This document shows, one piece after another, positions 123-29,275 of a stretch of 29,275 nucleotides of DNA. Where the stretch lies: contig JAAUPN010000024.1 in assembly GCA_012033105.1 (NCBI GenBank), positions 1 through 29,275 of the forward strand. The letters run 5' to 3'. The stretch is from Coleofasciculaceae cyanobacterium RL_1_1. Its GTDB lineage: Bacteria > Cyanobacteriota > Cyanobacteriia > Cyanobacteriales > Geitlerinemataceae. Position 1 is the stretch's first letter. Every line of letters starts with the position of its first letter. Both the position numbers and the translations under genes were made by a program. Under the pieces are notes generated by a model. The model ran no database searches. It saw only the letters and a list, made by a program, of their open reading frames with translations, and was not told the origin of the DNA.

Positions 123-1032
123 ATGACTTTAACTGCGAATCTCACGGCGGCTTTACCCACCTTTTTGATCACGTTACGCGAAGGCTTTGAGGCGGCGTTG
201 GTGGTGGGAATTGTTCTGTCGTGTCTCCAAAAAGCTCAGGCGTTGCGGCTTAAACGTTGGGTCTTGGCGGGGGTGGTCTCTGGGGTGGGGGCGAGTGTGG
301 CGATCGGGGTTATCCTGTACGGCAGCTTGGCGGCGATCGAGGCGAGCGATCGCCCGGAGATGGCGATCGTCAAACCAGCCTTGGAAGCAAGCTTTTCCCT
401 GTTTGCGATCGCGATGTTGAGCTGGATGCTGGTTTGGATGACGCGGCAGGCGCGATCGCTCAAAACCGAAATTACCGGAGCGGTTACGTCCGCGCTGACG
501 GACGCGACGGCGGGTGGTTGGGGTATCTTTTGGCTGGTGATGATTGCGGTGTTGCGCGAGGGGATTTGAAACGGTGCTGTTTGTGACGGCGCAGTTTTCC
601 CAGGGGTGGCAGCCGATCGCAGGGGCGATCGCGGGATTATCTGGGGCAACGTTGCTCGGGGTGATGCTGTTGGCCTGGGGCGTGCGGATTGATATTCGCC
701 AATTTTTTCAGGTGATGGGTGTGATTTTGCTCGTGGTGGTTGCGGGTTTGGTCGTGTCGGCGCTGAAGAATGTCAATCTGGCGATCGAGCTAGCGGGATC
801 GGTTTATCCGCAGTGGTCAAGCTGGTGCAATCCCGAGGCGGATTCCTGTGTATTGGGGATGCAGCTTTGGGATTTATCGGCAATTTTGCCCGATCGCGCG
901 TTTCCAGGTTTGTTGCTGAAATTGCTCTTGGGCTACCGCGATCATTTCTATGAACTCCAGGCGATCGGCTACTTGCTTTTTCTCAGCACGATCGGCGGCC
1001 TCTACTTCCAATACCTTAAGCCCCGCCCCTAG
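123..1032 (+). CDS. FTR1/EfeU-family high-affinity iron permease, split by an apparent +/-1 frameshift near 545-570 (ORFs 123..569 and 544..1032)
   Basis: The N-terminus is polytopic and hydrophobic with the motif LREGFEAALVVG. A second REG.(F)ETVLFV motif appears exactly where the first ORF stops and the second frame begins. Two RExxE motifs are the hallmark of FTR1/EfeU permeases. Confidence 0.7.
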
Positions 1033-1085
1033 CCCACACCATGACCCTCAATCCGTAATCATCACCCCGCAAACCCCGAGCAATA

Positions 1086-1639
1086 CTACCGCGCTCGATA
1101 TTTGATCCGCAGTGCATCTAGCTCCTGCTTCAGCTCCTCCGTTTTGTCATAAATGTAAGCCTCGAACTCCTGCGGCCATTTCACCTCAGTCAGTGCCGCG
1201 ACGTGATCCGGCATGTAGGGTGCATCCGATCGCGTGCAGTACATCCCCCAAATCGTCGCCGAGGTCATGTATTCGATGAATTCTGGTGGATAGTCCGACC
1301 CTTCGATGAGGTGAGCTTTCGTTTTGAGAATGGCGATCGCTCATCGTTTTGGCGCTTGAATAAATCGATCACCTCCGCATTCACCTCCGATAATTTCCCC
1401 TCAAGCCACAGGGGATAGAGCTGCGAATTTAGCTTGAGTGATGCGTAAAGCGGGCCGTAAAACTCCTCAAGTTGGCGTTGGCGATAGGCCAGATCCGCTT
1501 CGGTCAACAAGCGCTCTTTGTGTAACACCTTCTGTAGACCCGTTTCGATGATTTTTTCTGAGGAAAATTTAAAAATCCCTGACAGACCCAGCCCACCCGC
1601 GAGAATAATGCCGATTAATTGAATGGGGTCCATAGCCAA
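1086..1639 (-). CDS. hypothetical protein with one N-terminal TM helix; reading frame broken near 1265-1330 (ORFs 1265..1639 and 1086..1268)
   Basis: Two adjacent minus-strand ORFs lie in different frames. The first begins MAMDPIQLIGIILAGGLGLSGIF, which is a TM helix. The second continues without its own plausible N-terminus. The junction lies at a HIP1 site. Confidence 0.4.
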
Positions 1640-1787
1640 TCAGACAAGAAAGATCAATATCTGAGATGATCCCATAGACCGGGAATCCCAGGCCAAAATC
1701 ATCCGGTAAAACGCCAAGGCGAAACTCAAGACCCAACCTTCAAGCCAAAACCACAGACCCAATCGGATCAAGGCTCACCCGGATGTC

Positions 1788-1905
1788 ATACGAAATCCGG
1801 TTCTATATGAGAAAAATACAAAATACTTATGAGCACTGAGCGGAGTCGAAGTGCGGTGTCCACCTAGAGCGACGATCTAAGATTATGCACAATCGGATTT
1901 CGTAT
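1788..1905. repeat. 118-bp unit bounded by a 12-bp perfect inverted repeat (atacgaaatccg / cggatttcgtat) enclosing repeat copy A
   Basis: The inverted repeat can be read directly. It lies in the intergenic region upstream of ureD. Confidence 0.4.
1831..1857 (+). repeat. structured short repeat copy A (gagcactGAGCGGAGTCGAagtgcggt)
   Basis: It shares the GAGCGGAGTCGA core with four other loci. The 5-bp stem is gcact/agtgc. Confidence 0.6.
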
Positions 1906-1984
1906 CATACCCTCGAATTCCGAATATGCCACGGATCAACCCCTTGCATTGTTCCGGATTTCCCGCTATTTCTTCATCTTCCTT

Positions 1985-2952: not shown

Positions 2953-3255
2953 ATGCAACTTTCCCCCCAAGAAAAAGACAAGCTGCTGATTTTTACCGCT
3001 GCCCTGGTTGCAGAACGGCGGCTCGATAAAGGCTTAAAGCTCAATTATCCCGAAGCGATGGCCTACATCTCGGCTGGCATTTTAGAAGGCGCACGCGAAG
3101 GCAAGAGTGTTGCAGAACTCATGGAGTACGGCACGACGCTCTTGGGTCGCGATCGGGTCATGGACGGCATCGCCGAGATGATCCACGAAGTTCAAGTCGA
3201 AGCCACCTTTCCCGATGGTACAAAACTCGTCACCGTCCACGATCCCATTCGCTAA
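2953..3255 (+). CDS. ureA: urease gamma subunit UreA (100 aa)
   Basis: [23 protein letters not shown]...[24 protein letters not shown] is the canonical UreA sequence. The length is typical. Confidence 0.9.
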
Positions 3256-3272
3256 TCGCCTGTTTCTGAGCG

Positions 3273-3325
3273 AAAAAAACACCTCGGTTGAGTGACGAAT
3301 ACATCATCAAAACCGAGGTGTTTTT
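3273..3325. terminator. bidirectional intrinsic terminator between convergent ureA and prk
   Basis: A perfect 11-bp stem (acacctcggtt / aaccgaggtgt) has an A-run on the left flank and a T-run on the right flank. It lies exactly between the ureA stop and the prk stop. Confidence 0.6.
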
Positions 3326-3388
3326 CATGGCTTGATCGCAGGTTGTAAGCCGCGACGTGTGCAGCATCACACGCTATAGCACGATCGT

Positions 3389-4393
3389 TTAGACGCTCAC
3401 GGCAACCTTTTTGCTTTTCGCGGTCAGGCGGTTGAAGGTGGTGCGCATCTTGAGGCCGACAATCATTTGGAACAGACCCGTGCCGTCATTTGCACCGGGA
3501 TAGTCCTTGTGTTTCAGCAGCAAGTGAGCCAATTCGCCGTGGTATTTCGCCGAGGTGTTGCTCAGGTGGCTCTCAACGTAGATCATTTCTTCGAGGTTGT
3601 CGAATTTACCATCGACTTCCACGATCGAGACATCGTGACCGTAGTAGCTATCGGGACCCGAGAACAGGCGAATACCGGGGTAAGAACAGGTCAACTTGCG
3701 ACCGCACGGCGTCCAATGAATCGTCGAACCCTCATCAAAGAGATACACCGGCTCCAGACCTTCCACGTCATTGCGTTGGATGAGACGAACGCGCAGCGTT
3801 TTATGCTCCTTATCGTCATCCAGCAGCTTCGTCGGCAAAATTTGGACGACCACATCTGCATGTTGCTTTTGCGGGTCGATGTAGGCTTCAAAGTCCGGGC
3901 GACGCGCTTCGATCGAGGCAAGAACGTCTTCATAGGTGTGACCCCGTTCAGCCATATCGCGTTGGATTTTCCAAGCGATTTTAACTTCGTCGCTGATATC
4001 GAGGTAGACACTAAAGTCGAGCAGTCCGCGCACACGCTCGTCATAAATCGGGTGTAGACCTTCGATGACAACGATGTGGTTCGGATCAATACGCTCCGGA
4101 GGATCGAGTTCGCCAGTCTCGTGGTTATAGATAGGCTTCATGATGGAGTTGCCTTCCTTCAGCGATTTGATCTGTTCGTACATCAGATCAAAGTTGTTCG
4201 CCTTCGGATCAAGGGCGGTGACACCTGCGGCTTTGCGTCCTTTCCGATCGAGGCTGTGGTAGTCATCTAGACAGATGATGGTTACCATTTCCTCGCCAAA
4301 CAGATCGAACAGTCGGCGTAAGAACGTCGATTTACCGCATCCGGAGTCTCCGGCAACGCCAATAAGAACCACGCGATCTGGCTTCGTGCTCAT
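3389..4393 (-). CDS. prk: phosphoribulokinase
   Basis: A P-loop GVAGDSGCGKSTF is followed by the cyanobacterial PRK sequence (DDYHSLDR, NHIVVIEGLHP, two Cys in the N-terminal region). The 334-aa length is typical. Confidence 0.9.
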   Translation of the reverse strand: MSTKPDRVVLIGVAGDSGCGKSTFLRRLFDLFGEEMVTIICLDDYHSLDRKGRKAAGVTALDPKANNFDLMYEQIKSLKEGNSIMKPIYNHETGELDPPERIDPNHIVVIEGLHPIYDERVRGLLDFSVYLDISDEVKIAWKIQRDMAERGHTYEDVLASIEARRPDFEAYIDPQKQHADVVVQILPTKLLDDDKEHKTLRVRLIQRNDVEGLEPVYLFDEGSTIHWTPCGRKLTCSYPGIRLFSGPDSYYGHDVSIVEVDGKFDNLEEMIYVESHLSNTSAKYHGELAHLLLKHKDYPGANDGTGLFQMIVGLKMRTTFNRLTAKSKKVAVSV

Positions 4394-5100
4394 GTTGTTC
4401 CTCTAAAACGATTTTTTTGTCTACTAGCAACTCAATTCGAGCAAGCTGAACTCAACCTCTTGGGATGCTGCCCTAGAGTTCGCGATCTTGTCAGGGATAC
4501 GCTCAGTACTCAGTACTCGGAAGTATTTATTCCGCATTAGTCGCCTCTGACCGGCTCCGTGGAGTGGCAGGTGTGCGACCCGATCGATGTGGTCTGATCG
4601 CAGTCAATCTAAATTACATCGACCGTACTATACGTTGGCTTGTCTGTTAAGCGTTTAGTCTTAAGTGTGCGATAAATTCTACCAAAAGGGGATCGACGCT
4701 ACAAGGGTAGAAAAGCGAGAAAAAAGACATCGATCAGCCTCGGAATCTGACAGCACAATTTGGGCGATTGATACCTACGATCTTTTCTTTCCCGTCCACG
4801 TCCCCCAAAGTGGACATAATTGTGTGTCGATCCATTCATTCCCATTCTGTAATCACAGTAACAAAAACGTTGACAAAAGCAATATCTTTGGTGTGGTAGT
4901 GTCGTCTGATGAAAGCGTGTCCTCGTAAAGCGCTCTGCGATTTCAGTCCGTATTTCGTGGCGATACTGTGGGTCTTTAGCCCTACGCTCTGCCTTGATCG
5001 CGCTTGATCGCGGCTCGCCTTGACGGCGGCATGGCGCTTCCATGACCCTGTTTTATGACTTATACCGACGACCATCACGCACCTAGCTCAATGACGTACT
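4394..5100. promoter_or_regulatory. about 700-bp divergent promoter/leader region between prk (-) and the LysR regulator (+)
   Basis: No convincing ORF is present. It contains a GAGGAACAAC Shine-Dalgarno sequence ahead of the prk ATG and a short tcagtac x2 direct repeat. Confidence 0.4.
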
Positions 5101-6099
5101 ATGTCTGACCTTCCGTTTACGTTAGATCAGCTCCGGATTCTGAAGGCGATCGCATCGGAAGGGAGCTTTAAGCGTGCTGCCGACAGCCTCTACGTGTCAC
5201 AACCAGCGGTTAGCTTGCAGGTACAAAACCTCGAACGCCAGCTTGATGTGCCGCTGTTTGATCGGGGTGGACGGCGAGCGCAACTGACCGAAGCGGGTCA
5301 CTTACTCCTGAGCTACGGGGAGAAGGTGCTAACCCTTTGTCAGGAAACCTGTAGAGCGCTCGAAGATTTACAAAATTTACAAGGGGGTACGCTGATTGTG
5401 GGCGCGTCCCAAACGACGGGAACCTATCTGCTGCCTCGCATGATCGGTGTATTTCGCCAGCTTTACCCGGATGTGGCGGTGCAGCTTCACGTGCATTCAA
5501 CGCGGCGCACGTCCTGGAGTGTGGCGAATGGCCAAGTGGATTTGGCGATCGTCGGTGGCGAAATGCCATCGGATTTGCAGGAATCACTAGCGGTCGTCCC
5601 CTATGCCAAGGATGAGTTAGCGCTCATCCTGCCGGTATCTCATCCGCTGGTGAAGGCGGAGGTGATCGAAAAAGAGGATTTGTACAATCTCCAGTTCATC
5701 ACCCTTGATGCTCAATCGACGATTCGTAAGGTGATCGATCAGGTGCTGTCTCGTAGCGGCATCGACACGACGCGGTTGATGTTTGAGATGGAGTTGAATT
5801 CGATCGAGGCGATCAAAAATGCGGTGCAGGCCGGTTTGGGGGCGGCGTTTGTCTCGGTTTCGGCGATCGAGAAGGAGCTAGAGATGGGCGTGCTGCACCA
5901 TGCCAAGGTGGATGGAATTGTGGTGACGCGGACGCTCAACGCGATTTATAACCCGAATCGCTATCGATCGAAGGCAGCGGATGCGTTCATTCACGAAGTG
6001 CTACCAGAGTTTGCAACGGAAGAAATCGATCCGGAATCGAGTTTATTTCGCCATAGCTCTAGCAGTAAGCGATCGGCGCGAAAATTAAAGCGACCCTAA
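5101..6099 (+). CDS. rbcR: LysR-type transcriptional regulator of the CbbR/RbcR (Ycf30) family
   Basis: The N-terminal [45 protein letters not shown] is the strongly conserved RbcR/Ycf30-type signature. A LysR substrate-binding domain follows. The gene is divergent from the Calvin-cycle gene prk. Confidence 0.65.
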
Positions 6100-6251
6100 C
6101 CACCACCTCGCTACAAAGCTTGGCGGATCTTCACTGTTGCTCTGTGATGTTCACTAATGTTTATGAACATTCACGGACATCGGCGAGTTTGCTAAGGTTG
6201 GATCGAGAGACGTGATGCGTGTCTTCTGCTGGCAAAAACAACGCTATATAA

Positions 6252-8512
6252 GTGAGGTTTGGATCGATGTTGTATTGGTTTACGCTCCTACAAACCCTGC
6301 TGGCGTTGCTGCCCGGATCATTGCCGATCGCCGGCCTTTCCCGATCGCCCCAGGACACCGTCCATCAATCCCTCCCCGCTGAGTTGCGGACGACACCGAA
6401 TCGCAGTCACCCGCACAACTCGATCGCCGTCACCTCGATCGCAACCACGGAACCCACAAATACAAAGACCCAATTTGCTCCACAGCTAGAACTCAAACTT
6501 GCCCAAATCGGAGCCACAGCGATTCTGAGCAGTACAGCGATCGGCATTGTGGGGATCATCGTCCTACTGCTCATTAGCTTTTGGGCTTATACCCGCGTCT
6601 ACCAAATCACGCCGAATAACGAAGCCTTTGTGCGTACCGGTGGCTTTCTCGCCAAGAAAAACACCGTCATTCTCTACGGTGGCTGCATCGTGCTGCCCGG
6701 TTTCCACGAGCTAACCCGCGTGCCGATGCGTGAGATCACGATCGACGTAGAACGCACCGGTAACCTCGCCGTCCGCACCCAAGACTATCTCCGCGCCAAC
6801 ATGCGCGTTACATTTTACGTCTGCGTGAATCACGACGAACAGGACGTAAAAACCGCAGCGGCTCGCCTTTCCAAAGATGGCAGCATTTCCCCCGCGCACA
6901 TCAAAGAAGCCCTGGAGAAACGCGCCGATGACGCGATTCGTGCCGCCGCAAAACGCAAAACCTTAGCGGAAATTGACTCAGATAAGTTAGGTTTTGCTGA
7001 CGAAGTTTTAAATCTAATTCAGCAGGATTTAAAAAAGGTTGGATTGACGCTCAACAATATTGCAATTTCAGAAATTGAAGAGAGCGACACCTACGACACC
7101 AATAACTTTTTTGATGCTCAAGGCGTGAAGCTGCGAACCGAAACAATTCAGAAAGCGATTCAGCAAAAAGAAGAGGTCGAGCTGACCACCGAGCAGGAAC
7201 GGCGGGATTTCCAACTGACGACACAGCTCAAAATTAAACAGCAGGAAATCGAAGCACGAAAAAAAGCGCTAGAACTCGAACAAGATGAAGAAGATGCTCA
7301 ACTCCAGCAACAGCTAGAAGTTGAAGCGTTACGAGCGCAACGAGTCCGCGAAATTCAAGACGCGAAGGACACGGAAGCGGCGAACCAAGAACGTACGAAG
7401 ATTTTGCAGCAGCAGTCGATCGAGGAGGAACAGATCCGCAAACAGCTAGCGGTACAGGAAAGCGAAATTGCAGCCGAGATCGCCCTTGAGGAGCAGAAAA
7501 AGAACTTAAAAATTGCTCAATCCACCCAGAAGCAAGAGGCGGAAATGGCGGAAATTGCCTATCAGCAGCAGGTGATGGAGTCGCAGATCGCCTCGGATAT
7601 CGCCCTCGAAGAGCAACAGAAAAAATTCAACGTCGCGAAGACGAAGCAGCAGCAGGAAGCTGAAGTTGCAGAAATTCAGCGCAAGCAAACGATCGAGGCC
7701 AACCAGATGGCGGCAGCGGCAAAGGTCGCCGAGGCACGGCAGTTATCGGAAGTGGCGAAACAGGCGGCGGAAATTGCGATCGCGGAGAAAGAGCAGGAAC
7801 GGCTAGTCGCGGAAGCACTACGGGCGCGGGCGGAAGCAGCGGTGATGACGGCGACGGCCTTGGAGCAGGCGGAACGGGAACAGCAGTTGGTGGCGATCGA
7901 GGCGGAACGAGAGGCGGCGAAACAACGAATCGCCGATAATACGTCGTGGAAATCGAAGTGTTCCGGCGGCGTCGCCAAGCGGAAAGCGCTCGACAGGCTG
8001 CCGATCTCGAAGCGGAATCCATCCGCACGTTAGCCGATGCCAATCGTGAGAAAGCCCTGGCGGAAGCGGAGGCAGAAGAGGCCAAAATCCGAGCGGGAAA
8101 TGCGATCAACACGGCAAACCTGGCGGCAGAGTTGATCCGCGAGATTGCACCGCAGTTGGTCAAAGAGTTACCGGCGATCCTGAAGGCGCTCGCCCCTCAG
8201 CCCGGAGTGTTGGGCGATGCCAAGATTTACTCGTTTCCAAGCGGTGCGGGCAGTGCGGATGAGATTGGCAAGTTGATGTTATCGACGAGCGGCATGACGG
8301 TGTTGAATTCGCTTTTGGAAGAGGGTCAGATTGTGCAGTGGATCGACACGGCGATCGGGGCGTTGCGTGCGAGCGGGACGGAGATTCCGGCATCGCTGGA
8401 GACGCTAGCAACGAAGGTGCAAGCATCGACGGGATCAACTCGATCGACAGGCGATCGAGCGATCGTCACGCCGCCACCGGCATCATCCGAAGCCACGGGC
8501 GATCTCGGTTAA
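6252..8512 (+). CDS. flotillin-like SPFH/band-7 membrane protein with a long E/A/Q-rich coiled coil; apparent frameshift near 7935-7950 (ORFs 6252..8033 and 7946..8512)
   Basis: A TM helix is followed by an SPFH core and then 250+ aa of EA/Q-rich heptad repeats. The C-terminal segment AEAEEAKIRAGNAINTANLAAELIREIAPQLVKELPAIL is typical of flotillin/YqiK proteins, and it continues in another frame. Confidence 0.75.
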
Positions 8513-8557
8513 CCACAAATCTAAAGTGCAAATCTAGAACAACCGAGGTGAATACGG

Positions 8558-9570
8558 GTGAATTCTGCCTTTCCCGTCACCCATTCCATTCTGTCGGTTC
8601 CGGCGCTGCTGGCGAAAATCGCGGTGGACTACGCGATCGGCCCGCCGATCGACGGCCATTTACTTCAGCTTGGTCTGAACGATACGTTTCGGCTACGGAC
8701 ACCGGCGATCGTCTACATCGCGCGAGTCTATCGCCACGGCTGGCGCACCCGCGCCGAAATCCTCTACGAGTTGGAGGCATTGCGACACCTACAGGCGCGA
8801 GGGATGAAGGTGGCCGCGCCGATTTTGCGTCGGGATGGCGAGCTGATCGGCGAGCTGGATGCGCCGGAGGGGGTGCGTTATCTCGTGTTATTTGACTATG
8901 CCGAGGGTGAGGAGCCGTGTTATGACGCAGAGACTGGCGCGGCTCAGTCGGGTGATCGTCGATCGGATGTGTATCTGTATGGTCGATCGGTCGCGCAGGT
9001 ACATCGGGCAAGTGATGATTTTGCCTGCGATCAACCACGTTTTACGCTGGATTTAGATTATTTACTGACCCATTCACTATCTAAAATTCAGCCGTTTTTA
9101 TCGAATCATGCGGCGGTTTGGGATGAGTTAGTGAGTTTGACAACACGTTTGCGCCAAAAGCTGAAAAACTGGCCGATCGAGCATTTAGAAACGGGGTTTT
9201 GTCACGGGGATTTCAAGGTGGGAATGCTCATATTCAGCCCGCAGATCGATCGCTGACGTTGTTTGATTTTGACTGTTGCGGTCGAGGGTGGCGGGCGTAC
9301 GATTTGGCGGTGTTTCGCTGGAATGTGGCAGTGAATGGTCTGCCGCTGCGGGTGTGGGAGGCGTTTTTGGCGGGGTATCGGGCGGAACGGGCGATCGCGG
9401 CGATCAATCTGGCGGCGATTCCGTACTTTGTGGCGGTGCGTCAGGTGTGGATTATGGGGTTACACTGCGGGAATAGTGGAGATTGGGGAGTGGGTTGGTT
9501 GAATGGGCGATATTTCGCGCGATCGTTGAATTTTTTGCGAACTTGGGAAACGAATGAATTCCCCTCGTAG
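8558..9570 (+). CDS. aminoglycoside phosphotransferase (APH)/kinase-like fold family protein; frameshift near 9215-9225
   Basis: The catalytic HGDF motif sits at the end of ORF 8558..9256. The expected continuation GGNAHIQ...LTLFDFDCCGRGWRAYDLA, which contains the DFD/DxD motif, is in the overlapping ORF 9199..9570. Start codon is GTG with GAGGTG upstream. Confidence 0.6.
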
Positions 9571-9591
9571 GGTGGGCAATGCCCACCCTAC
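9567..9591. terminator. perfect 11-bp stem-loop (gtagggtgggc aat gcccaccctac) overlapping the APH stop codon
   Basis: The inverted repeat can be read directly. No U-tract follows, so it may be a processing or stability hairpin rather than a classic terminator. Confidence 0.4.
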
Positions 9592-9603
9592 TCAGAGCAT
9601 ACT

Positions 9604-9740: not shown

Positions 9741-9772
9741 TTGATCGCCCTACAACTTGATCGCCCTACAAC
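9741..9772. repeat. perfect 16-bp tandem duplication (ttgatcgccctacaac x2) spanning the DUF218 gene stop codon
   Basis: It can be read directly. Confidence 0.5.
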
Positions 9773-10491
9773 CAACCTCGCGCCCGATAAATAATCGCGC
9801 CGATGTATTCCTTCAGCGCCTTCGTCGTCATCATCAGATTTTCCGCATCCGGGATCACGCTCAAAATCGCACCCGCACCCGTGCTGCGTGACGCTTCAAA
9901 AAAATCATCCGCCACTAAAAAATCCGTCGGTGCTGCGATCGCCTCGATCCCCTGCTTGCGAAAAATCGCCATCGATCGCGGCATATGAAACGCCGACGTG
10001 ACCAGCAACACCTGCTTAATCCCCTCTCGATCGAGCATTGCCTTCACATTGCGGGCGTTTTCGTAGGTATTAAACGAGTCCGGCTCCTCCAAAATGGCCG
10101 ATCGCGGCACACCCATCGGCTCCATCAACTCCGCCATATCCGCCGCCTCCGACCCTTCCCCGCCGCGCCAGCGAATCCGCCCGCCCGACAGCACCACGAT
10201 CGGCGCTTTGCCCTCGCGATACAGTTTCGCCGCATACAACACCCGATCGCCCGCCTCCGACACCTCCACCCACGGGCGCGGTGGCTCCGGCGATCGCGTC
10301 GCCCCACCCAGCACCACGATCGCCTCCGCCTGTGGTAGCTCGGTCGGGAGATATTGGCGTTCGAGCGATCGGATCGCCGTCGCTGCCACCCAGCCATTAC
10401 CCGCAAAAATCAGCAGCATCAGCGCCGTTAACGTGACGCTTGCCGCTGCTCGCGGGTAGCGCCAAACCAAGATCAGCGCCGCAATCAGCAA
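9766..10491 (-). CDS. DUF218 (YdcF/ElyC/SanA-like) family protein
   Basis: An N-terminal TM helix is followed by the conserved IVVLGG..R..EA..LYREG.AP.IVLSGG...EA..M core typical of DUF218. Confidence 0.7.
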   Translation of the reverse strand: MLIAALILVWRYPRAAASVTLTALMLLIFAGNGWVAATAIRSLERQYLPTELPQAEAIVVLGGATRSPEPPRPWVEVSEAGDRVLYAAKLYREGKAPIVVLSGGRIRWRGGEGSEAADMAELMEPMGVPRSAILEEPDSFNTYENARNVKAMLDREGIKQVLLVTSAFHMPRSMAIFRKQGIEAIAAPTDFLVADDFFEASRSTGAGAILSVIPDAENLMMTTKALKEYIGAIIYRARGWL

Positions 10492-10611
10492 CAGACAGGT
10501 CAGACCGAGCGGGTAGACAACAACGGTAAAAGCTTGGACAGGAACAGAAACATGATGGCGGTTAACGCTAGGCTAAACGGTGTTGATGATTGTGGTCTAA
10601 ATTAGGTCGGT

Positions 10612-18700: not shown

Positions 18701-18756
18701 GCGATAGATCGAAAACCAGCCCCGCAACCCGGATCAGCGCAGCTATGGGCGAGATG

Positions 18757-20275
18757 TTAGCCGGTACGCCAGACCAGTTTTAAACGGAGTAACCAACGGG
18801 TAAACAGGGCGACGAAGAGTGTGTAGACGATCGCCCGCATCATGGCTAAAACGGGCGCTTGGGTGAGTAAGCTCAACCCTGGATGGAGGCGCGTCAGATT
18901 AAACAGCGGGAGCAGCACATTGGCATAGGCGACGTAGGCCACCATGGGATTGCGGCCATTGTCGATCGCCAGTTGCAGCCAGCGCCGTGTCTGAAAGGGT
19001 TGATCGAAATCCTCGATCGCGATCGTCAGATTCACCCACAAAAACAGCGACATCGCGACGGTAATGAAAAAGTAGCTTAGGGTCGGTGGATCTTTGTGAA
19101 TGCCGTCTTGAAACGGTTCAAAAATAGCCCCAGGATCAGCCAATACGATCCCCAGCGGATGAGCTGCGAGCGAAATCGATCGCGAGCGGCGAGGGTTGTT
19201 CCACGGGGTAGGCTTGCGAGGATGATCACCATGCCGCCGATCGCGATCGTCGTCGTCAGTCCGACCCAACGCCCTTGTAAACCGACCAGTAACACCAGTA
19301 ACATCACGCCCAATAGCTTGGCGATCGCCAACCAACGCCAGCGAGAGACCCGAGGAATTTCGACCTCGCGACTCGTCTCCAGCGCTCGATCGCGCCAGTA
19401 GCGCAGCAGCAAATCGCCCGCGATCGTTCCCGGCACGACGATCAACAGATATTGCAGATATTCCACCCGAAACAGCCAGGGGATCGGCGAACCATTCCAC
19501 AGTGACATAACCCAGCCGTCCGCCGTCGCCGATATTCGCAACGCCAACAGCAACACCAACGCCCCCGAGCCGCCACCGACCATCGCGATCGCGTCACCAG
19601 CCACAGCAGCGAGCCGCCCAGCGACGAGACCGCCAACAACATTAAAATCACGTCTTGCCGTGCCAGATCAAACCCGGTATCGTCACGAAACGGCAGGATC
19701 GCCAGCAAAACCACGATCGCCAGCCAGCCGCCAAGCTTGGCCGCGATCGGCAGCCAGCGAGGACACCGCGATCGCCAGGATTGCGGCCAACGCACATACA
19801 CCAACGTCAACAGCCCAAACCCAAGTAGCGTTAACCCCCAGGTGAGATCCGTGGGTTTGGCGCTGAGGTGGTTTGGGCGGAAATGTTGCAGGACGATCGC
19901 GAAGGCGCTGAGTTCGAGCCAGCGGCGGGCGATATCCCCAAGAAGACGGGCGATCGCGATCGGAGTTAACGGACGATCACCGACGAGGCGATCAATTCGC
20001 CGCGACAGTGCGAGCGGAATCGAGACGCCCATCACAAACAAAAACAGCGGAAACACCCAATCCACCCAAGTCAAACCGGGCAGCAGGGGATCAAAAATAA
20101 AATCGGGGGGCGCGACCTGGGCGTGATACATCCAGGCTGGCAGCGGCGGTTTGCGGGGAACCAGCCCGGAAAAGACCATCATCAAGACCGCAAGACCGCG
20201 CAGGGCATCGAGGGCGTCGGCGCGATCGATGCCAGGGTTAACCGAGGTGGACTCCGGAGGCGGTGAATCGTGCAT
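18757..20275 (-). CDS. DUF1624/DUF5009 (HGSNAT-like) polytopic membrane protein with C-terminal extension; two apparent frameshifts (about 19560-19600 and 19080-19130)
   Basis: Three overlapping minus-strand ORFs (19442..20275, 19077..19604, 18757..19500) are each hydrophobic and in different frames. The N-terminal motifs LDALRGLAVLMMVF and VDWVFPLFLFVMGVSIPLA are typical of DUF1624. Confidence 0.5.
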
Positions 20276-20353
20276 AGGTTAATGCCGTGGGAGCATCGAA
20301 TAGAACATCGAACCCGTGACCACTGCACTAACCTCTCACCCAACGCTCAAGGA

Positions 20354-20512
20354 TTATTGAAAGAAGAAGCCAGACAGTAACAAGGGAACGATTAATAGTG
20401 CCACGACAATGACCGTTAAGGTGGTGGGATCAACGTCGATTTCGATCGGCGGAACCGGCGTTTTTTCGCGCGTGACAACATCAGGCGAGGTCGAACGGGT
20501 AGGGGTGCTCAT
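20354..20512 (-). CDS. candidate small protein (52 aa) with a C-terminal TM helix, translationally coupled to hisH
   Basis: Hand translation gives MSTPTRSTSPDVVTREKTPVPPIEIDVDPTTLTVIVVALLIVPLLLSGFFFQ. Its ATG overlaps the hisH stop (ATGA at 20509-20512). It is below the 60-aa cutoff of the ORF track. Confidence 0.3.
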   Translation of the reverse strand: MSTPTRSTSPDVVTREKTPVPPIEIDVDPTTLTVIVVALLIVPLLLSGFFFQ

Positions 20513-21139
20513 GAGGAAGCCTCCGCAAGTTGAACAAAATTTGAAAGCAGCTTTAAGCCAGCATCGGACGATTTTTCGGGGTGAAACTGGACGGCCATCA
20601 GGTTGTCACGGGCGATCGCGGCGGTGACGTGCTGGCTGCCGTGGTGTACCGTTGCGGCTTTGATGCTGGGGTCGATCGGATCGACATAATAGGAATGAAC
20701 GAAATATACCCAAGGCGAGTCACCCAGACCGCCCCACAGTGGACTGTTTGGCTGGACATACTCAAGCTGATTCCAACCCATATGGGGAATCGTGATACCG
20801 GGTTCGGGGGGTGAAATGGCGCACCGTGCCGGGGATAATTCCGAGGCCGGGTTCGGAACCTTCTTCGGAACGGTCAAACAAAATCTGGAGTCCGAGGCAA
20901 ATTCCTAGGAACGGCTTACCGGACTCGATCACGGTCTTGATCGTTTGTTCGAGACCGCGCGATCGCAAATGTTGCACCGCCGGATCGAACGACCCCACTC
21001 CGGGTAACACCACCGCATCCGCCGCCAGAATTTCTGCGGGAACGTCAGTCACCAGGGTATGACCGCCCGCATTATCCAGCCCTTTACAGGCTGAATGCAG
21101 GTTACCCATGTCGTAGTCGATGACGGCGATCGTTGCCAT
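20509..21139 (-). CDS. hisH: imidazole glycerol phosphate synthase glutamine amidotransferase subunit HisH; frameshift near 20800-20860
   Basis: The N-terminal ORF has IAVIDYDMGNLHS...GKPFLGICLGLQ with the catalytic Cys. The C-terminal ORF has HMGWN...FVHSY...QFHPEKS with the His/Glu pair. Together they total 210 aa. Confidence 0.85.
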
Positions 21140-22644: not shown

Positions 22645-23217
22645 TTAACGCAGCTTCGGACGCACGAGTACCACTGGCGTTTGCTCGTCCGCATTCCCGG
22701 CGGGATTGCTCCGCAGCGCATCTTGCAGGATGCCGTCAATCTTGGACGAGGACGACGCCAATACCTTCACGGCCTTGAGGTCATTCACATCGACGATCGC
22801 AGCTTCTAAGCCCGTTTCACGCTTGATGCGATTCACCAGACCTTGGGCATCATCAGGACCCAGCACAATGAAGCGATCGTAAGGCGGCAGCGTACCCGTC
22901 ACGTCATCGATCAAACGCGCCTGATCGCCTGCGAGTTGGTAAAACACACCGGGACGCCCGAAAATTTTGGCGATCGCGCCGATCGCAAAGGCGAAACCCA
23001 CCCGCCACGCGCCGGACACATCCACCAAGGTTTGCAGCCCGCACACCGTCGCGAGGCTCGATGTGGGCAAGAAGAAATAGCACAGGCGTTTCGCCAGCCA
23101 GCCCGGTTTCACGTCGGCGGGGTAACGCCAGCGCTGCTGCATGATCGCAATCGGGGTTTCGCCGATCGTCACAATGTCGCCCTCCTTCGAGTGGGGCAGC
23201 ACGTAACGGCGCACCAC
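22645..23217 (-). CDS. CofE/FbiB-like domain (COG1478, F420-0:gamma-glutamyl ligase family) protein. The frame stays open upstream to 23382 without any start codon.
   Basis: The motifs GDIVTIGETPIAIMQ, VDVNDL, VLASS and NPAGNADEQTPVVLVRP match the conserved CofE blocks. The only candidate start is GTG at 23217, which would truncate the N-terminal part of the domain. Confidence 0.55.
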   Translation of the reverse strand: MVRRYVLPHSKEGDIVTIGETPIAIMQQRWRYPADVKPGWLAKRLCYFFLPTSSLATVCGLQTLVDVSGAWRVGFAFAIGAIAKIFGRPGVFYQLAGDQARLIDDVTGTLPPYDRFIVLGPDDAQGLVNRIKRETGLEAAIVDVNDLKAVKVLASSSSKIDGILQDALRSNPAGNADEQTPVVLVRPKLR

Positions 23218-23240
23218 TTCGACGGGATCATCAAGATGGG

Positions 23241-23840
23241 TCAGCAGGTGGGTTTTGACGGGGAAACCTGGGCGCGATCGCGATCGAGCCAGTTCGGCGG
23301 GGCATTGCGATCGGGATAGTCCAGCGGCACAACCGCGTGACCAATTTTCGGGATACGTCCGGCGGGGCCGTAGGTCATGTAGTTAAACCGTAGCCAAACC
23401 GTTTTGAGGCAATCAAGATTCGAGCCGGTCAGCTCGATCGAGATCTTGACCCCCGTGCTGTACTTCGCTTTGACGATATAGGCAAACCAGTAGCCATCCT
23501 CACGGGCAGGCGCATCAGGATGTTGGGGTGTGATCCGAATATCCGACTCGATCGCGTGCAGATCCGCGCCGCCCAGCAACGTCACCTCCGCCGATACCTC
23601 GGGGATCATGACTTCCAGCGCGTCCGTGGCGTTGTACAACTCGGTTTCACCGACGAGCAACACCCGATCGGCGCTCCGCTCGGCGATCGTCCACTGTCCG
23701 GGCTTAAACACCAGCTCATTCCCCTGGCGCTGACGATACTTCGCCTCAAACCCCAGCAGCCCAAGGCCGATTGCACCTACGACCGCTCCGGCTCCTACTG
23801 CAATTCCTGTTGCGATCGCACGATATGGACTCTCCCTCAC
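23241..23840 (-). CDS. hypothetical protein with an N-terminal TM helix; possibly the N-terminal part of a fusion with the CofE-like domain through a frameshift at 23265-23290
   Basis: It ends inside a gcgatcgcgatcg HIP1 doublet, where the CofE-like frame is already open. I recognise no motif. Confidence 0.4.
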   Translation of the reverse strand: MRESPYRAIATGIAVGAGAVVGAIGLGLLGFEAKYRQRQGNELVFKPGQWTIAERSADRVLLVGETELYNATDALEVMIPEVSAEVTLLGGADLHAIESDIRITPQHPDAPAREDGYWFAYIVKAKYSTGVKISIELTGSNLDCLKTVWLRFNYMTYGPAGRIPKIGHAVVPLDYPDRNAPPNWLDRDRAQVSPSKPTC

Positions 23841-23999: not shown

Positions 24000-25822
24000 C
24001 TACGGCAGCAATGGTGACGGGTCTTGCGTTTGCAGCGTCGAACGCTTAAAAGCCTGGATAGCATAGCGAACACGGTTCAGTTCTGAGATCACGCGTTTCA
24101 CATCATCTTCTAGATCAACGTGATCGAGATTATGCGTTTTTAACTGTTGCTCTACGCCAATAATCAGTCGTTCTAACGTCTTCGCGCCGATATTCGTCGA
24201 ACCACCACGCAAAATATTAACTAAATAGAACGACAGATCGCGATCGCCAAGCTGTTGAGCCGATTGTAATTGCGACTCAAAATTCGCGTGAGTCTGGAGG
24301 AAAACATCCAGCAATTCTTGATACAGTTGTGCATCGTGATCGCAACGTTCTAAACCCGCTTCAACATTCAAAGCGAGCAATTGCGCCATCTCTTCATTCG
24401 CACAACAAATACAATTACGCCCCTGCTCCTTCGCCTGGAACAATGCCGCATCTGCCGCTAAAACAATCTCATCGGATGACGTGCCGACTTGCGGAAGACT
24501 CGACGCTACCCCCATACTGACTGTGATGCGATCGCTCGATCATGAGTGCTATGTTCGAGCGCAAGATCGGCTAAGTTTTTTTGAATCTGGCGAGCCAGAT
24601 AAATGGCTCCGGGAGCATCGGTATTGGGCAAAACAATGGTGAACTCTTCACCACCATACCGTGCCACAAAATCTGTCGGTCGATTCACTGATTGTTGCAG
24701 CAACTGAGCGACCTGAATGAGGCATTGATCACCTTGGGGATGACCATAGGTATCGTTATAGAGCTTGAAATAATCAATATCAAGCATGATGATTGATAGA
24801 CTCTGCTGCTCGCGTTGTAATCGTCGATATTCGCGATCGAGATAATCGTCTAAAGCTCGACGATTCGCAATTTTCGTCAGGCCATCTAAGTTACTCAATC
24901 GCTTTAATGCTACATTGGCTAGCTTCAAACTGTGATGTAAATTAGACTGCTGAATCGCAATGATGAGCTGGGCAATAACGGGCTCTAGTAGCTCTAAATT
25001 AATTGCATTCATCATCGCTTCTTGACCATGAATGAGCAGAATGCCCCAAAGTTGAGAATCTTGGATGATGGGCAGACGATACTCCGCCTCGATTTGGCAA
25101 CGTTGAAACCAATCGCGATCGCTCAGGGTTAAGTGATTGGGATCGGTTGTGGAGTGAATATACGGCTGATGATCGAGGGGAGCTGCAATGGGATAGTTTG
25201 CGTTTTGTAATGCGGTATCGGTCGAAGCGACAATCACCGGGGCTTTGCTTGAGGGGTAGCGAGCGATCGCAATGCGATCGGCGCCGAGTAAATTTTGGAG
25301 GTTATTGACGGTCGTTGAGAGAATCTGTTTAAGCTGAAGCGAGCCATGAATTTCTGTGACCAATTCGCGCAGAATTGATTCTTGCTTCGCTTTCAGTTGA
25401 GCTTGATGACGTAATTTTGCCAGTTCAAGATGATTCGTAATCCGAGCAATTAGCTCTTCCGTCCGAAAGGGTTTGGTCACATAGTCGCCCGCACCAACGG
25501 CAAAGGCTTGCTGTAAATGACTCACATCATTACTAGCGGTGAGAAAAATAACGGGGATATCGGTAGTAGCAGGATGTTGCTTGAGCTGCTTACAAACTTC
25601 TAGGCCATTCATCCCTGGCATCATTAAGTCTAATAGGATTAAGTCCGGTACAATCTCTGTTGCTCTTTCCAGTGCCTGGACGCCATTCATTGCAAATGTT
25701 AATCGGCACTTAAAGAACGAGAATTTTCCTCTTAAAATCTTGAGATTTTCAGGGATATCATCGACCAGTAATAACAGGGGTGATTTACTTCCTTCCGGTG
25801 ATAAATAATGCCGGTGTTTCAT
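24000..25822 (-). CDS. response regulator REC - GAF - GGDEF with a C-terminal Hpt-like domain; frameshift near 24505-24540
   Basis: The REC domain reads LLLVDDIPENL...DLILLDLMMPGMNG...TKPF. The GGDEF motif reads RYGGEEF. The ITVSMGVA block spans the frame junction. The C-terminus LVNILRGGSTNIGAKTLERL looks like an Hpt motif with Asn in place of the phospho-His. Confidence 0.8.
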
Positions 25823-25829
25823 GTTTGAT

Positions 25830-25854
25830 AATAAACAAAGATTTTTTGTTTATT
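25830..25854. promoter_or_regulatory. perfect 10-bp palindrome (aataaacaaa gattt tttgtttatt) 8 nt upstream of the REC-GAF-GGDEF start codon
   Basis: The inverted repeat sits in the 5' UTR/RBS position of the minus-strand gene. The surrounding 70 bp are AT-rich. Confidence 0.4.
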
Positions 25855-25887
25855 TACTTTCAGATAGAATTGATTAATCTAATTTTA

Positions 25888-26843
25888 CTATTGTCCTGAT
25901 CGTGTTTGACGGCTCTTGAGAACTCGCAGGAGTTTGTCAAATACTGACGGAGGATCGGCGATCGCGGCGATTTCCTGGCCGGTACGCGGGTGGCGTAGGG
26001 TTAGTTTCCAGGCGTGCAGGGCTTGGCCGGGGAGGTTGACGCCGATCGTTTGGGCGGAACTGTAGAGCGGGTCGCCGATAATTGGGTGACCGATCGCGGC
26101 ACTGTGGACGCGGATTTGGTGGGTGCGTCCGGTTTCGAGGCGAAAATGAATCAGGGTGTAGTTTCCGAGGCGATCGATGACATCCCAGTGGGTGACGGCC
26201 AAACGTCCCCCATGCTCAATGTCTAAGATGGTCATCTTTTGCGATCGGCAGGATGGCGTCCGATCGGTAAATCGATCATGCCGTGATCTTCGCGAGGGGA
26301 ACCGTAGACGAGGCCGAGGTATTCGCGGCGTGCGGTTTTGGCGGCGATCTGTGCCTGGAGGTGCTGATGGGCGAGGTCGGTTTTGGCGACGACGATCGCG
26401 CCGGTGGTGTCTTTATCGAGGCGGTGGACGATGCCGGGGCGTTGGGTTCCACCGATGCCGGATAGTTTGCCCTGGCAGTGATGCAGCAAGGCGTTAACTA
26501 AGGTGTCCTGGGTATGGCCGGGGGCGGGATGAACCACGAGGCCGACGGGTTTATTAACGATCAGCAGATCGTCATCTTCGTAGAGAATATCGAGGGGCAG
26601 ATCGAGCGGAATCAGAGCATCGAGGGGTTCGGCGTCGGGGATGGTGATTTCGAGTCGATCGCCGGGTTTGAGCTTCTGTTTTTTTTGGGTACAGGTGACA
26701 TCATTGAGGCGTACATGTCCTTGCTCAATTAGGCTTTGCAGGCGCGATCGGGATAAATCGTCAATGCGATCGGCGAGTAGGCGATCAAGGCGATCGGAGG
26801 TCTCTGCGATTAGGGTGATGGGGTCAGGCATGGCAAGGGGCAA
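25888..26843 (-). CDS. rluD: 23S rRNA pseudouridine synthase RluD (RluA family with N-terminal S4 domain); frameshift near 26230-26260
   Basis: The S4-like N-terminus reads RLDRLLA...SRSRLQSLIEQGHVRLN. The catalytic motif HRLDKDTTG is in the first ORF. The conserved C-terminal part (HGGRLAVTHW...HQIRVH) is in the second ORF. Confidence 0.8.
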
Positions 26844-26996
26844 AGGGCTCGATATTCTCGATATGATGGCCTAATAACTGGTGTCGCTTTCATCCGATAT
26901 TTCATTCAACCACAGCCACACAGCCACGCCGAACTTGTCTCGGGTTTTGTGTGCTGTTCAAGCCCTAAAAACCATGCTAATCAGGATGATCGATCG

Positions 26997-27851
26997 ATGA
27001 AACCGATCCGTACGGGAAAACTGCGTGTTGAACGCCTGACGATTCCTTTCGCCAAATTACCGCAACGACTGCATGGCCTCAAAATCGTCCAACTCTCGGA
27101 TCTGCACTACACCAACAGTCAGCTCTCCGATCGCCTGCTCAACCAGGCGATCGACACCGTGAACCGTAACGCCCCGGATATTATCGTCCTCACCGGCGAT
27201 TTTATTCACGATGAGCCGGAGCCGATCGACAGCCTAATCCCATTTCTCAAGCGGCTACACGCCCGCCACGGCATCTACGCCATCCTCGGCAACCACGATA
27301 TCTACCTGCCCGAAGCCCGCCATTACGTCACCCGAGCGCTGTCGCGGATTGGGATTTGTGTGCTGTGGAATCAGGTGGTGTATCCCGCTGGTGATGGTTT
27401 AGCCTTGGTGGGTCTCGCGGATCTGTGGTCTGGTGAATTCGACCCGCGCCCGTCTTTCGCGACCTCGATCCGGATGTGCCGCGCATCGTGTTGTCCCACA
27501 ATCCCGACACCGCCGAAACCCTGCGCCGCTGGCGTTGTGACCTGATCCTGTCCGGCCACACCCACGGCGGCCAACTTGTGTTACCGTTCCTTGGCCCTTT
27601 GCCGAAATACCTCGACTTTTCCGCTGGATCATTCCCAAGCCGCTCTATCCTTACCTGCCCCTGCTGGGGAAAGGGGACTACGTGACGCAGCACTGGGAAT
27701 GGGCGTCGGGGATGTTTCGCCTCGGTCGCAATCGGCTGTATGTGAATCGCGGTTTGGGGTCGTATTTTCCCGGTCGTTTTGGCTGTCCGCCGGAGGTGAC
27801 GGAGTTTGTGGCGATCGCCCAGCCCAATGCCCCGAAATACGGGTTTGATTA
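26997..27851 (+). CDS. calcineurin-like metallophosphoesterase; two frameshifts (about 27455-27480 and 27640-27650)
   Basis: The motifs run in the canonical order LSDLH, GDFIHD and GNHD in the first frame and ILSGHTHGGQ in the second. The conserved C-terminus YVNRGLG...PEVT is in a third frame. Confidence 0.7.
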
Positions 27852-27885
27852 AGAGTATTGCCCAAACATAATCGCCTCAAAAAAA

Positions 27886-28130
27886 GCTGAGAGCAATGAG
27901 CGGAGTCGAAGTGCGGTTCTTAACTGAGACGAGAGTGTCCTAATTTAGTCGGCTTGCATTCTATCAGGCATCATCGCCGATCTCAAGAAGTGCGACTTTT
28001 CTCAAAAGTCGCACTTCTACATCAGTCCGAAGTCTGATCGCGATAGTCAGTTCACCCAAAAAAGCAAGACCAGTTGACTCTGTTCTGTTTGCTCAAACAC
28101 CGCGTTTCGACTCCGCTCAACGCTCTCAGC
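27886..28130. repeat. 245-bp MITE-like composite element bounded by 33-bp terminal inverted repeats (repeat copies D and E) with a central perfect 15-bp hairpin at 27986-28018
   Basis: The left terminal inverted repeat is gctgagagcaatgagcggagtcgaagtgcggtt. The reverse complement of the right one is gctgagagcgttgagcggagtcgaaacgcggtg. The central hairpin is agaagtgcgactttt ctc aaaagtcgcacttct. Confidence 0.55.
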
Positions 28131-28285
28131 ATATTCTGACAATCATTGAACGGATGATAACGGTTAGGCCAACGGCGACGCGGCCAGCAAGACCCACACC
28201 CCGGCTAAACCCAGAATACAAAGCAGCCACAATACACGCCGTATGGTCATGGTTGTCTGGGATAACGGGGTCGGGTTCATCCGGT

Positions 28286-29275
28286 CTAGGACTTGGGTAA
28301 CTGGTACTGACTGACGATCTTTTTCGCGAACTCGGGGACGTGGGCGTCGAGATTTTCGGGGTGGTTGCGTTGGGTGTAGAGATAGTTGCGTGTGAAGTGC
28401 GAATCGATCGAGAATCGCGCGTATTCCAAACCCTTCGGGCCAAAGCGCTCGATAAATACACCCATGAGCCGTGCTGCCCACATCGGCAACGTCACGCCCA
28501 TATCGTAAGCCGGGATGCTTTGCTGGACGGCCTGTTTACGATCGCCGCTAGAGCTAACGGGCTGGGTTTCGAGCCGATCGCGAATCAGCTCCAACATCTC
28601 CGCCCCCGTCTCATTCCGCACCACAATCCATTGCCACTGGAACGGCGCACCCATGTAGCCCACTACCAAATCCGCCAAACCATTCGTGTAGTCAAAACAG
28701 CTCATGCAGGACGGCGCAAACACGTCTTTAAGTTCTTTTGTATTCAGGCCAAAAAACGGGACGAGTTCGATCGAGCCGTCCTCATGGCGGAAGTGAACCC
28801 GAAAATCCTGCATAAATTCGTAATGCACCACGGTTTCCGGCGATCGGCTCGTGGTTTCCAAGAACTTTTGCAGACCGGCGCGATCGACATTATCCACGCA
28901 GGGCATCCCCAACACGTAGAGCTTTTCGAGGCCAATCTCGTACTGCACGCTCGCAACGCCTGAATCTGACAGCCCACGCCGATCGCCAAGACACGCTTCA
29001 TACCTGCCTGTTCAATCTGTTCTAGCACCGACAAATTCGGCGACAGCGTCGGTTTATTCACCTTCGCCGCCAGCACCTCCGCCGGAGTTCGAGCCACGAT
29101 CGGCATCGGGCCAAAGCGATCGGTCGGCGAATTCTGCACACAGATCACGCCCTCCACCAGACCCCGTTCGAGCATTTCACAGGCCAGCATACTAACGATG
29201 CCCGTCCACTGTGCGCCCTCGATCGGCTGCGTATTACGCGCCGCAAACATCTCCTGATGCACACCAAAATACAGC
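28286..29275 (-). CDS. FrhB-family protein (coenzyme F420 hydrogenase beta-like; HCAR-type in cyanobacteria). The 5' end runs off the window. Frameshift near 28930-28960.
   Basis: The N-terminal part QWTGIVSMLACEMLERGLVEGVICVQ...VGCQIQALRA and the C-terminal part YEIGLEKLYVLGMPCVDN match conserved FrhB blocks. The frame is still open at the window edge (..LYFGVHQEMF). Confidence 0.65.

Follow-up and report, generated by a model that had tools for sequence, protein, structure and literature searches.

Sixteen one-base frame changes on a cyanobacterial MAG contig are very probably consensus errors rather than gene decay

The window that we analysed, 29,275 nt in length, is an entire contig of the MAG "Coleofasciculaceae cyanobacterium RL_1_1" (NCBI), and conserved genes are split between reading frames along much of its length. 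Do these breaks reflect the decay of a genome, or are they errors in the deposited sequence? We found 16 one-base indels (12 deletions and 4 insertions), or about 1 indel per 1.8 kb, which break 12 of the roughly 25 genes on the contig. This is far beyond chance. We propose that the frameshifts are consensus errors from sequencing or assembly and that the organism's genes are intact, and we consider this very probable. The main reason for preferring error over genome decay is that none of the indels spanned by an independent assembly of the same population is present in that assembly. An earlier first-pass annotation of the sequence, which had preferred indel-type errors of sequencing or assembly to true pseudogenes, is thus supported: the reading frame is open at 4/4 of the spanned sites, dN/dS is not relaxed, and there are no nonsense mutations.

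Frame changes along the contig

The indels were identified from Pfam, tblastn, and nucleotide alignments (Table 1). Neighboring ORFs in different frames match successive stretches of the same Pfam model, and with the intact orthologues of two relatives as tblastn queries, the frame changes at each site. Every indel is 1 nt in size (16/16). The 13 frame changes that the first-pass annotation had listed all exist, within about 25 nt of where it had put them, and three more (10519, 19576, and 23819) were absent from its list. Some of its details need to be corrected. The break in the hypothetical protein had been placed at 1265–1330 but is at about 1340; those in the metallophosphoesterase lie 12–23 nt to the left of the ranges that were given; and the break in the APH-fold kinase is not in a G-run but in the TT? 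codon of the HGD[L/F]QGGN motif. Comparison with orthologues, which had been suggested as the way to place the indels, localized the frame switch at each site. (Rfam and tRNA scans of the window gave no RNA match.)

Table 1. Broken genes in the window. Indel coordinates are on the + strand of the window and were taken from nucleotide alignments.
Gene	Position	Strand	One-base indels	Pfam match in successive frames
FTR1 iron permease	123..1032	+	insertion, G-run 560-563, G3 → G4	model 2-136 and 135-274 of 284
Hypothetical protein	1086..1633	-	deletion ~1340, edge of HIP1 site	
Flotillin (Band_7 + Flot)	6267..8512	+	deletion 7941, AA → A	Band_7 in first ORF, Flot in next frame
APH-fold kinase	8558..9570	+	deletion ~9214, HGD[L/F]QGGN catalytic loop	model 11-183 and 177-234
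DUF218 gene	9766..10553	-	deletion 10518/10519, codon 12	
DUF5009/HGSNAT-like membrane protein ("DUF1624" in the first-pass annotation)	18757..20275	-	insertion 19562 (C4 → C5), insertion 19576 (C → CC), deletion 19120 (A6 → A5)	model 1-201 and 209-259
hisH	20509..21139	-	insertion 20806, G5 → G6	GATase, model 2-88 and 99-187
CofE-like gene (NCBI name "F420-0:gamma-glutamyl ligase")	22645..23821	-	deletion 23266 (A4 → A3), deletion 23819 (directly behind GTG start)	
REC-GAF-GGDEF-Hpt regulator	24000..25822	-	deletion ~24540	first ORF ends at GGDEF model position 120/161; Hpt domain in next frame
rluD	25888..26843	-	deletion 26237-26240, T5 → T4	PseudoU_synth_2, model 1-98 and 110-152
Metallophosphoesterase	26997..27852	+	deletion 27443 (C4 → C3), deletion 27617 (T5/6 → T4)	
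FrhB-family gene	28286..29275 (runs off contig end)	-	deletion 28948, CC → C	N-terminal and C-terminal domains in two frames

Our search with FTR1 returned homologues that are only about 57–61% identical, so its insertion was located by the REGFE motif alone (it reads cgc gag ggG att tga); removing one G gives a 302-aa ORF. For the hypothetical protein, where the context of the deletion is gat ga[g] GCGATCGC, a 186-aa homologue (P0184) pairs with the first ORF up to residue ~106, while its C-terminus pairs with the third frame (AIAILKTKAHL...) and a 60-aa ORF. The repaired protein has 182 aa. The APH-fold kinase switches frame relative to its orthologue in the S16 MAG and has 337 aa once repaired, and hisH is intact at 209 aa in S16, L169, and L172. 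For the CofE-like gene, at least eight relatives are intact at 392 aa, contain the junction peptide RDRAQVFPVKTHLL, and are 96–98% identical to the repaired protein, as judged by eye. (CofE-like relatives also made up most of the results of a search with concatenated junction peptides, for which the best match came from another sample, SRR26831647.) The regulator is intact in S16, with a 540-aa gene call and a 607-aa ATG ORF, and it is a single open frame in L007, against which the window switches frame; among the matches listed for a metagenome search with the REC-GAF-GGDEF fragment, generic response-regulator and GGDEF peptide patterns brought in distant ones (27–55% identity). Both deletion positions in the metallophosphoesterase are agreed on by two relatives, and the repaired protein (285 aa) is 96.5% identical to that of S16. 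Finally, the repaired part of the FrhB-family gene is 98.5% identical to S16.

More broadly, the orthologues are intact in every relative that we fetched (the S16 MAG, PH2015_06S, and Logan contigs of three other runs), and none of the window's breaks is found in the syntenic relatives. When all 16 indels are undone, the 12 repaired genes are full-length ORFs with no internal stops, and the ten that have an S16 orthologue align to it over essentially their entire length. We also compared selection before and after the breaks. Downstream of the first break, dN/dS is 0.101 (0.085–0.118), much the same as the values for the sequence upstream (0.110) and for intact genes (0.096).

The same population in an independent assembly

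The Logan contigs of SRA run SRR11470442 are an assembly that was made independently of the MAG. Four of these contigs together align to 10,694 nt of the window at 99.8–100% identity, with 3 mismatches in total. The read set holds the same population as the MAG, and given the near-identity of the sequences, SRR11470442 is probably the run from which the MAG was built. The contigs span four of the indel sites (7941, 19562, 19576, and 26237) and are in frame at 4/4; their internal gaps relative to the window are exactly these four indels. Logan reproduces none of the 16 indels (4 sites are spanned, 2 are at contig ends, and 10 are outside the contigs).

The individual alignments are clear. L167 is the same as the window from 2970 to 9054 except for the gap at 7941 and one mismatch at 7928, 13 nt upstream of it, and it encodes an intact flotillin of 748 aa. 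L173 has no mismatches across 1585 nt, its only two gaps are the insertions at 19562 and 19576, which are 14 nt apart, and it terminates exactly at 19120, the site of the deletion in the same gene. L175 (100% identical over 908 nt) begins exactly at the DUF218 indel site, 10519. At rluD, L171 has T5 and an open frame throughout. Compared to the window, L171 has two synonymous SNPs, so there is some microdiversity among strains. The tip of L171 also bears an error of its own (T6 instead of T7 at 24576–24582), which shows that the reads themselves miscount homopolymers.

The ends of the Logan contigs tend to be near homopolymers as well. By reading the alignments, we found that 4/8 ends are in or adjoin long homopolymers (C6 at 2964–2969, A5 at 19120, T8 at about 26685, and the end at 24571, with T7 lying 5 nt inward). 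In a formal test that counted only ends with a homopolymer of at least 5 nt no more than 3 nt away, the result was 3/8 (P = 0.0025). The Logan contigs that we encountered were short (0.9–6 kb). A point against consensus error is that an exact look-up of 18 repaired protein sequences in a protein collection gave no match, which may be because complete genes are rarely assembled in such short contigs.

Decay, strain variants, or recoding

If the breaks were true pseudogenes, then genes would have been inactivated recently on a massive scale, as happens in symbionts that have newly become restricted to a host. Pseudogene-rich genomes are known from recently host-restricted bacteria such as Mycobacterium leprae and Sodalis glossinidius, and the high share of frameshifted genes on the RL_1_1 contig resembles them; also, genuine slippage mutations likewise prefer homopolymers. 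The genomes of M. leprae and S. glossinidius, however, have nonsense mutations, deletions, expansion of IS elements, relaxed selection, and lesions that are supported by reads. On the RL_1_1 contig, the 16 frameshifts are accompanied by no nonsense mutations in the genes that we compared, and no large deletions or IS in the broken genes. None of the ORFs that we scanned against Pfam matches a transposase, and selection continues unrelaxed past the breaks. The open frames at the four spanned sites in the independent assembly also argue against inactivation. Furthermore, hisH and rluD, which the first-pass annotation counted as essential, are among the broken genes, and the GC content of the window (about 54%) and its gene order are like those of free-living relatives. 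We therefore consider true pseudogenes to be highly improbable, and the suggestion that the breaks, if real, would indicate a decaying genome such as a symbiont's finds no support in the Logan frames, the dN/dS values, or the absence of nonsense mutations.

A subtler possibility is that the MAG consensus represents a minority strain with the frameshifts, while Logan assembled the majority strain. The two synonymous SNPs in L171 could be read this way, and so could the Logan contig ends that coincide exactly with two indel sites, since a bubble between two alleles would produce such breaks. But 4 frameshifting indels against only 3 substitutions over 10.7 kb is the opposite of real coding divergence, a strain with 12/25 of its genes inactivated is not expected to persist, and the error at the tip of L171 shows that miscounted homopolymers are present in the reads. 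Strain polymorphism is therefore very unlikely.

It is also conceivable that programmed ribosomal frameshifting or transcriptional slippage restores the frame at expression. As in prfB and dnaX, the frame changes lie within conserved genes, and slippage would be possible at several of the sites, which lie in short homopolymers. Programmed frameshifts are conserved among orthologues, though, and sites of the prfB or dnaX type have defined slippery motifs, whereas the orthologues of the RL_1_1 genes are in frame at every site (in S16, PH2015_06S, and four Logan samples). The changes are also of both +1 and −1 types, in unrelated genes and in varied contexts. This explanation seems vanishingly improbable.

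Origin of the errors and what they mean

Consensus error, which we prefer, would be expected to give single-base indels enriched in homopolymers, and the first-pass annotation had proposed checking whether the sites are homopolymers. This is true of about half: roughly 8/16 indels occur where a base is repeated 3 or more times, and the rest are outside of such runs. For longer runs, 6/16 indels touch a run of 4 or more in the window, as compared to 8.7% expected (P = 0.0016). Also, 5/16 indels are within 10 nt of the cyanobacterial palindrome HIP1 (GCGATCGC), which was the only motif tested that was significantly associated with the indels; GATC, CGATCG, GGCC, and CCWGG had no significant association with the 16 sites. 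There is a very slim chance that some of the indels, chiefly the five near HIP1, are real low-frequency variants in the population, in which case HIP1 would seem to mark a hotspot of indels (e.g., because of methylation, hairpin formation, or repair), and sequencing alone would not account for them.

How might the errors have arisen? We suggest that single-base miscounts, mostly deletions, were introduced when a metagenomic bin of low quality was sequenced or assembled. The reads may have been error-prone or thin in coverage, with the length of homopolymers and some HIP1-adjacent positions being miscalled, and the MAG assembler may have threaded the contig along weakly supported k-mers. The exact termination of Logan contigs at 10519 and 19120 is an indirect hint of low depth or base quality at such sites. 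A sister MAG, Acaryochloris sp. CRU_2_0, which appears from its naming to be from the same project, does not look heavily fragmented, so the problem is specific to the bin or its coverage and is not project-wide. (The names of contigs from the sister bin resemble the output of SPAdes, which would be more in keeping with short-read or flow-based data than with nanopore. Our literature searches turned up nothing on the MAG, the sister bins, or the run accession.)

Indels that fragment genes have been described as a class of assembly error, with reports from long-read assemblies (PMC12007338, PMC9262707). Like the indel errors of draft assemblies made from error-prone or low-coverage reads, those in RL_1_1 are single-base, are biased towards deletions and homopolymers, split conserved genes, and vanish in an independent or more conservative assembly, and repairing them yields ORFs of full length. 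They differ in that half of the sites are outside of homopolymers of 3 or more and five cluster beside HIP1, and perhaps also in the type of data, given the SPAdes-like contig names of the sister bin.

The practical value of this finding is as a data-quality flag for a public MAG contig. About half of the contig's genes are mis-annotated or dropped as pseudogenes, and at least one artefactual truncated protein is already in nr (NJN60799.1, NCBI's annotation of a fragment of the REC-GAF-GGDEF-Hpt regulator, with 438 aa instead of the 607 aa of the full-length reading). Estimates of completeness, pangenome analyses, and counts of pseudogenes that use the RL_1_1 bin would be misleading. Where Logan includes a read set from the same population, comparing a contig to that independent assembly is a quick check, at nearly the level of the reads, that does not require downloading them. 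The biological significance is low: there is no evidence that the genome of RL_1_1 is decaying or symbiotic, and its genes are almost certainly intact.

Gene content and frame changes

According to Pfam, the window encodes, in order, FTR1, a hypothetical protein, UreD, UreA, phosphoribulokinase, LysR, flotillin, an APH-fold kinase, DUF218, a hypothetical protein, UDP-GlcNAc 2-epimerase, FHA-GGDEF-EAL, a PP-loop/LarE-like protein, BlaR-like and BlaI-like proteins, DUF5009, a 52-aa protein, hisH, GNAT, a CofE-like protein, REC-GAF-GGDEF-Hpt, rluD, a metallophosphoesterase, and an FrhB-family gene that runs off the contig end. Six intact ORFs (PRK, LysR, LarE-like, M56 peptidase, CopY/BlaI repressor, and GNAT) are exactly the NCBI proteins NJN60783.1 to NJN60797.1. 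Scans of the window found no Rfam families or tRNAs, and its G+C content is unremarkable (about 54% by base counts, with 1-kb windows mostly at 45-60%).

The first-pass annotation claimed 13 frame changes, and taken together, Pfam, tblastn with relatives' proteins, and nucleotide alignments show that all 13 are real. For most of these genes, adjacent ORFs in differing frames match successive stretches of one Pfam model: positions 2-136 and 135-274 of FTR1, 11-183 and 177-234 of APH, 1-201 and 209-259 of DUF5009, 2-88 and 99-187 of GATase, and 1-98 and 110-152 of PseudoU_synth_2. Similarly, the N-terminal and C-terminal domains of FrhB lie in two frames, and the GGDEF match ends early, at position 120 of a 161-position model, with an Hpt domain coming after it in the next frame. 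In tblastn, proteins from Geitlerinema sp. S16 and from Oscillatoriales PH2015_06S_54_30 switch frame at each claimed place. The claimed coordinates were broadly right, but three were off by 10-25 nt, and the APH break does not lie in a G-run as had been thought.

In total, we found 16 one-base indels (12 deletions and 4 insertions), which break 12 of about 25 genes. The lesions are 1-nt indels throughout: none of the broken genes shows a large deletion, the ORFs that were scanned include no transposase, and we saw no nonsense mutations.

One-base indels and intergenic repeats in the window (indel positions are from nucleotide alignments, except for FTR1 and the hypothetical protein)
Feature	Window position	Lesion or description	Remark
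FTR1	560-563	+G	read from REGFE motif
Hypothetical protein	~1340	-1	placed with homologue P0184 (186 aa)
Flotillin	7941	-1	
APH	9214	-1	
DUF218	10519	deletion, breaks codon 12	additional to the 13
DUF5009	19120	-1	
DUF5009	19562	+1	four codons in third frame (WRLG) up to 19576
DUF5009	19576	second insertion	additional to the 13
hisH	20806	+1	
CofE-like	23266	-1	
CofE-like	23819	deletion right behind GTG start	additional to the 13
REC-GAF-GGDEF	24540	-1	
rluD	26237	-1	
Metallophosphoesterase	27443	-1	
Metallophosphoesterase	27617	-1	
FrhB	28948	-1	
Small dispersed intergenic repeat	1820-1857, 9591-9656, 11386-11482, 27876-27933, 28075-28139	core GAGCGGAGTCGAAGTGCGGT, both orientations	Logan contig L175 ends within a copy
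Stretch related to this repeat	1785-1905	~120 nt	91% identical to S16 intergenic region
MITE-like element	27877-28139	~260 nt; 41-nt terminal inverted repeats, 83% complementary	strong predicted fold (z = -7.5); insertion relative to S16, whose metallophosphoesterase-FrhB spacer is only ~21 nt

An independent assembly of the same population

Each Logan contig comes from an independent assembly of the raw reads of a single SRA run, and one from run SRR11470442 also encodes the exact PRK protein of the window. We compared four contigs from this run. L167 (6,086 nt) matches window 2970-9054 save for one mismatch and one gap, at the flotillin site; its extra A at 7941 gives an intact 748-aa flotillin. 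L173 (1,585 nt) matches window 19120-20706 with zero mismatches and exactly two gaps, one for each of the insertions (19562 and 19576), and its DUF5009 is open over 384 aa. L171 (2,115 nt) matches window 24571-26685 save for two synonymous mismatches and indel differences; its run of Ts at 26237 is T5 rather than T4 as in the window, and rluD is open throughout. L175 (908 nt) matches window 10519-11426 at 100% identity.

All four of the indel sites that are spanned by these contigs are in frame (within 10.7 kb of near-perfect identity), and with these four sites spanned, none of the window's 16 indels is reproduced. Two more contig ends fall exactly at indel sites (the start of L175 at 10519 and the end of L173 at 19120). 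Over the 10.7 kb compared, the only differences between the deposited contig and the Logan contigs, whose reads sample the same population, are these indels and three substitutions. The tip of L171 has its own homopolymer error (T6 versus the window's correct T7 at 24576-24582), which would break the GGDEF gene. This error and the two synonymous SNPs in rluD (window 26412/26415) indicate homopolymer noise in the reads themselves, together with slight microdiversity among strains. The four Logan contigs have eight ends, of which four, by our reading of the alignments, lie in or beside long homopolymers (C6 at 2964-2969, A5 at 19120, T8 at about 26685, and a T7 that starts 5 nt in from the end at 24571); in a formal test (a run of at least 5 within 3 nt), it was three of eight (P = 0.0025).

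Intact relatives and purifying selection

The closest syntenic relative among the matches listed is the MAG Geitlerinema sp. S16 (GCA_011390275.1, contig JAABST010000041.1), which has 81-90% nucleotide identity to the window and in which the claimed broken genes are intact. (The S16 flotillin gene call, at 16870-18565 of locus L001, has just 374 aa, without the Band_7 part, yet nucleotide similarity extends upstream to window 7084; this may be a defect of that MAG or a miscalled start in a repetitive coiled-coil region.) Other close relatives, on Logan contigs from SRR26831647 (94-95% nucleotide identity), SRR28370020 (93%), and SRR18885326, are all intact. Between the BlaI-like repressor and DUF5009, S16 (L001 6061-6780) and another relative (locus L169) have an ABC-transporter ATPase gene (239 aa) that is absent at window 18350-18756; the roughly 400 nt there have a sole ORF of 83 aa, without a Pfam match.

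Undoing the 16 indels yields 12 full-length ORFs with no internal stops. The 10 with an S16 orthologue align over essentially their entire length, at 80-98% amino-acid identity. The CofE-like protein is intact in at least eight relatives; their proteins all contain the junction peptide RDRAQVFPVKTHLL and, judged by eye, share 96-98% identity with the repaired protein. For one of them, P0311, BLASTP gives 98%. Pooled dN/dS against S16 was 0.096 for intact genes (95% CI 0.083-0.110), 0.110 upstream of the first break (0.092-0.128), and 0.101 downstream of it (0.085-0.118). The supposedly dead 3' parts have experienced the same purifying selection as the remainder.

Origin of the frameshifts

The first-pass annotation preferred sequencing or assembly error to gene decay, and this is supported by the Logan contigs and the intact relatives, by the repaired ORFs, and by the unchanged dN/dS: the frameshifts are an artefact rather than biology. 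Three results contradict true pseudogenisation: the spanned sites are in frame in the Logan contigs, dN/dS is unchanged, and no other type of lesion was seen. A frameshifted strain co-existing in the population is contradicted by the ratio of indels to SNPs, with four frameshifts versus three substitutions over the 10.7 kb. Orthologues that are in frame contradict programmed frameshifting.

Six of the 16 indels touch window homopolymers of at least 4 nt (8.7% expected, P = 0.0016), so the homopolymer association raised by the first-pass annotation is present, but about half of the indels lie outside runs of at least 3 nt (about 8 of 16 are within such runs, if run length is counted in the correct sequence). 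Also, five of the 16 (1340, 19576, 23266, 23819, and 24540) lie within 10 nt of one of the window's 39 copies of the cyanobacterial palindromic octamer HIP1 (GCGATCGC), where chance predicts 3.7% per site (P about 2e-4; correction for the five motifs tested raises this to about 1e-3). These could be context-specific sequencing errors, via methylated CGATCG/GATC or a palindromic hairpin. A real mutational hotspot is less likely; the HIP1-adjacent indel at 19576 is absent from the independent assembly.

We propose that, at thinly covered positions, the MAG assembler let error k-mers of single-read or low abundance enter the consensus. Logan retains only k-mers that are seen more than once, and because single-occurrence k-mers are dropped, its contigs would be either correct or broken off at the indel positions. 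The deletion bias and the preference for homopolymers fit a read chemistry, or a coverage regime, in which runs are miscounted. We found nothing in the literature about the sequencing platform of MAG RL_1_1. In a sister bin, Acaryochloris sp. CRU_2_0 (apparently of the same naming series), the contig names are in SPAdes style and show about 6.5x coverage, which hints at low coverage; by appearance, that bin is not heavily fragmented. Indels that fragment genes in this way are well described as a type of assembly error (PMC12007338, PMC9262707).

NJN60799.1, a 438-aa "diguanylate cyclase" that is annotated as a normal protein in NCBI nr, is the 5' fragment of the REC-GAF-GGDEF-Hpt gene (window 24506-25822, minus strand). 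Therefore, an artefactual truncation is already inside the public protein databases. In practice, these results serve as a warning about the quality of MAG RL_1_1 and of the truncated NJN60799.1.
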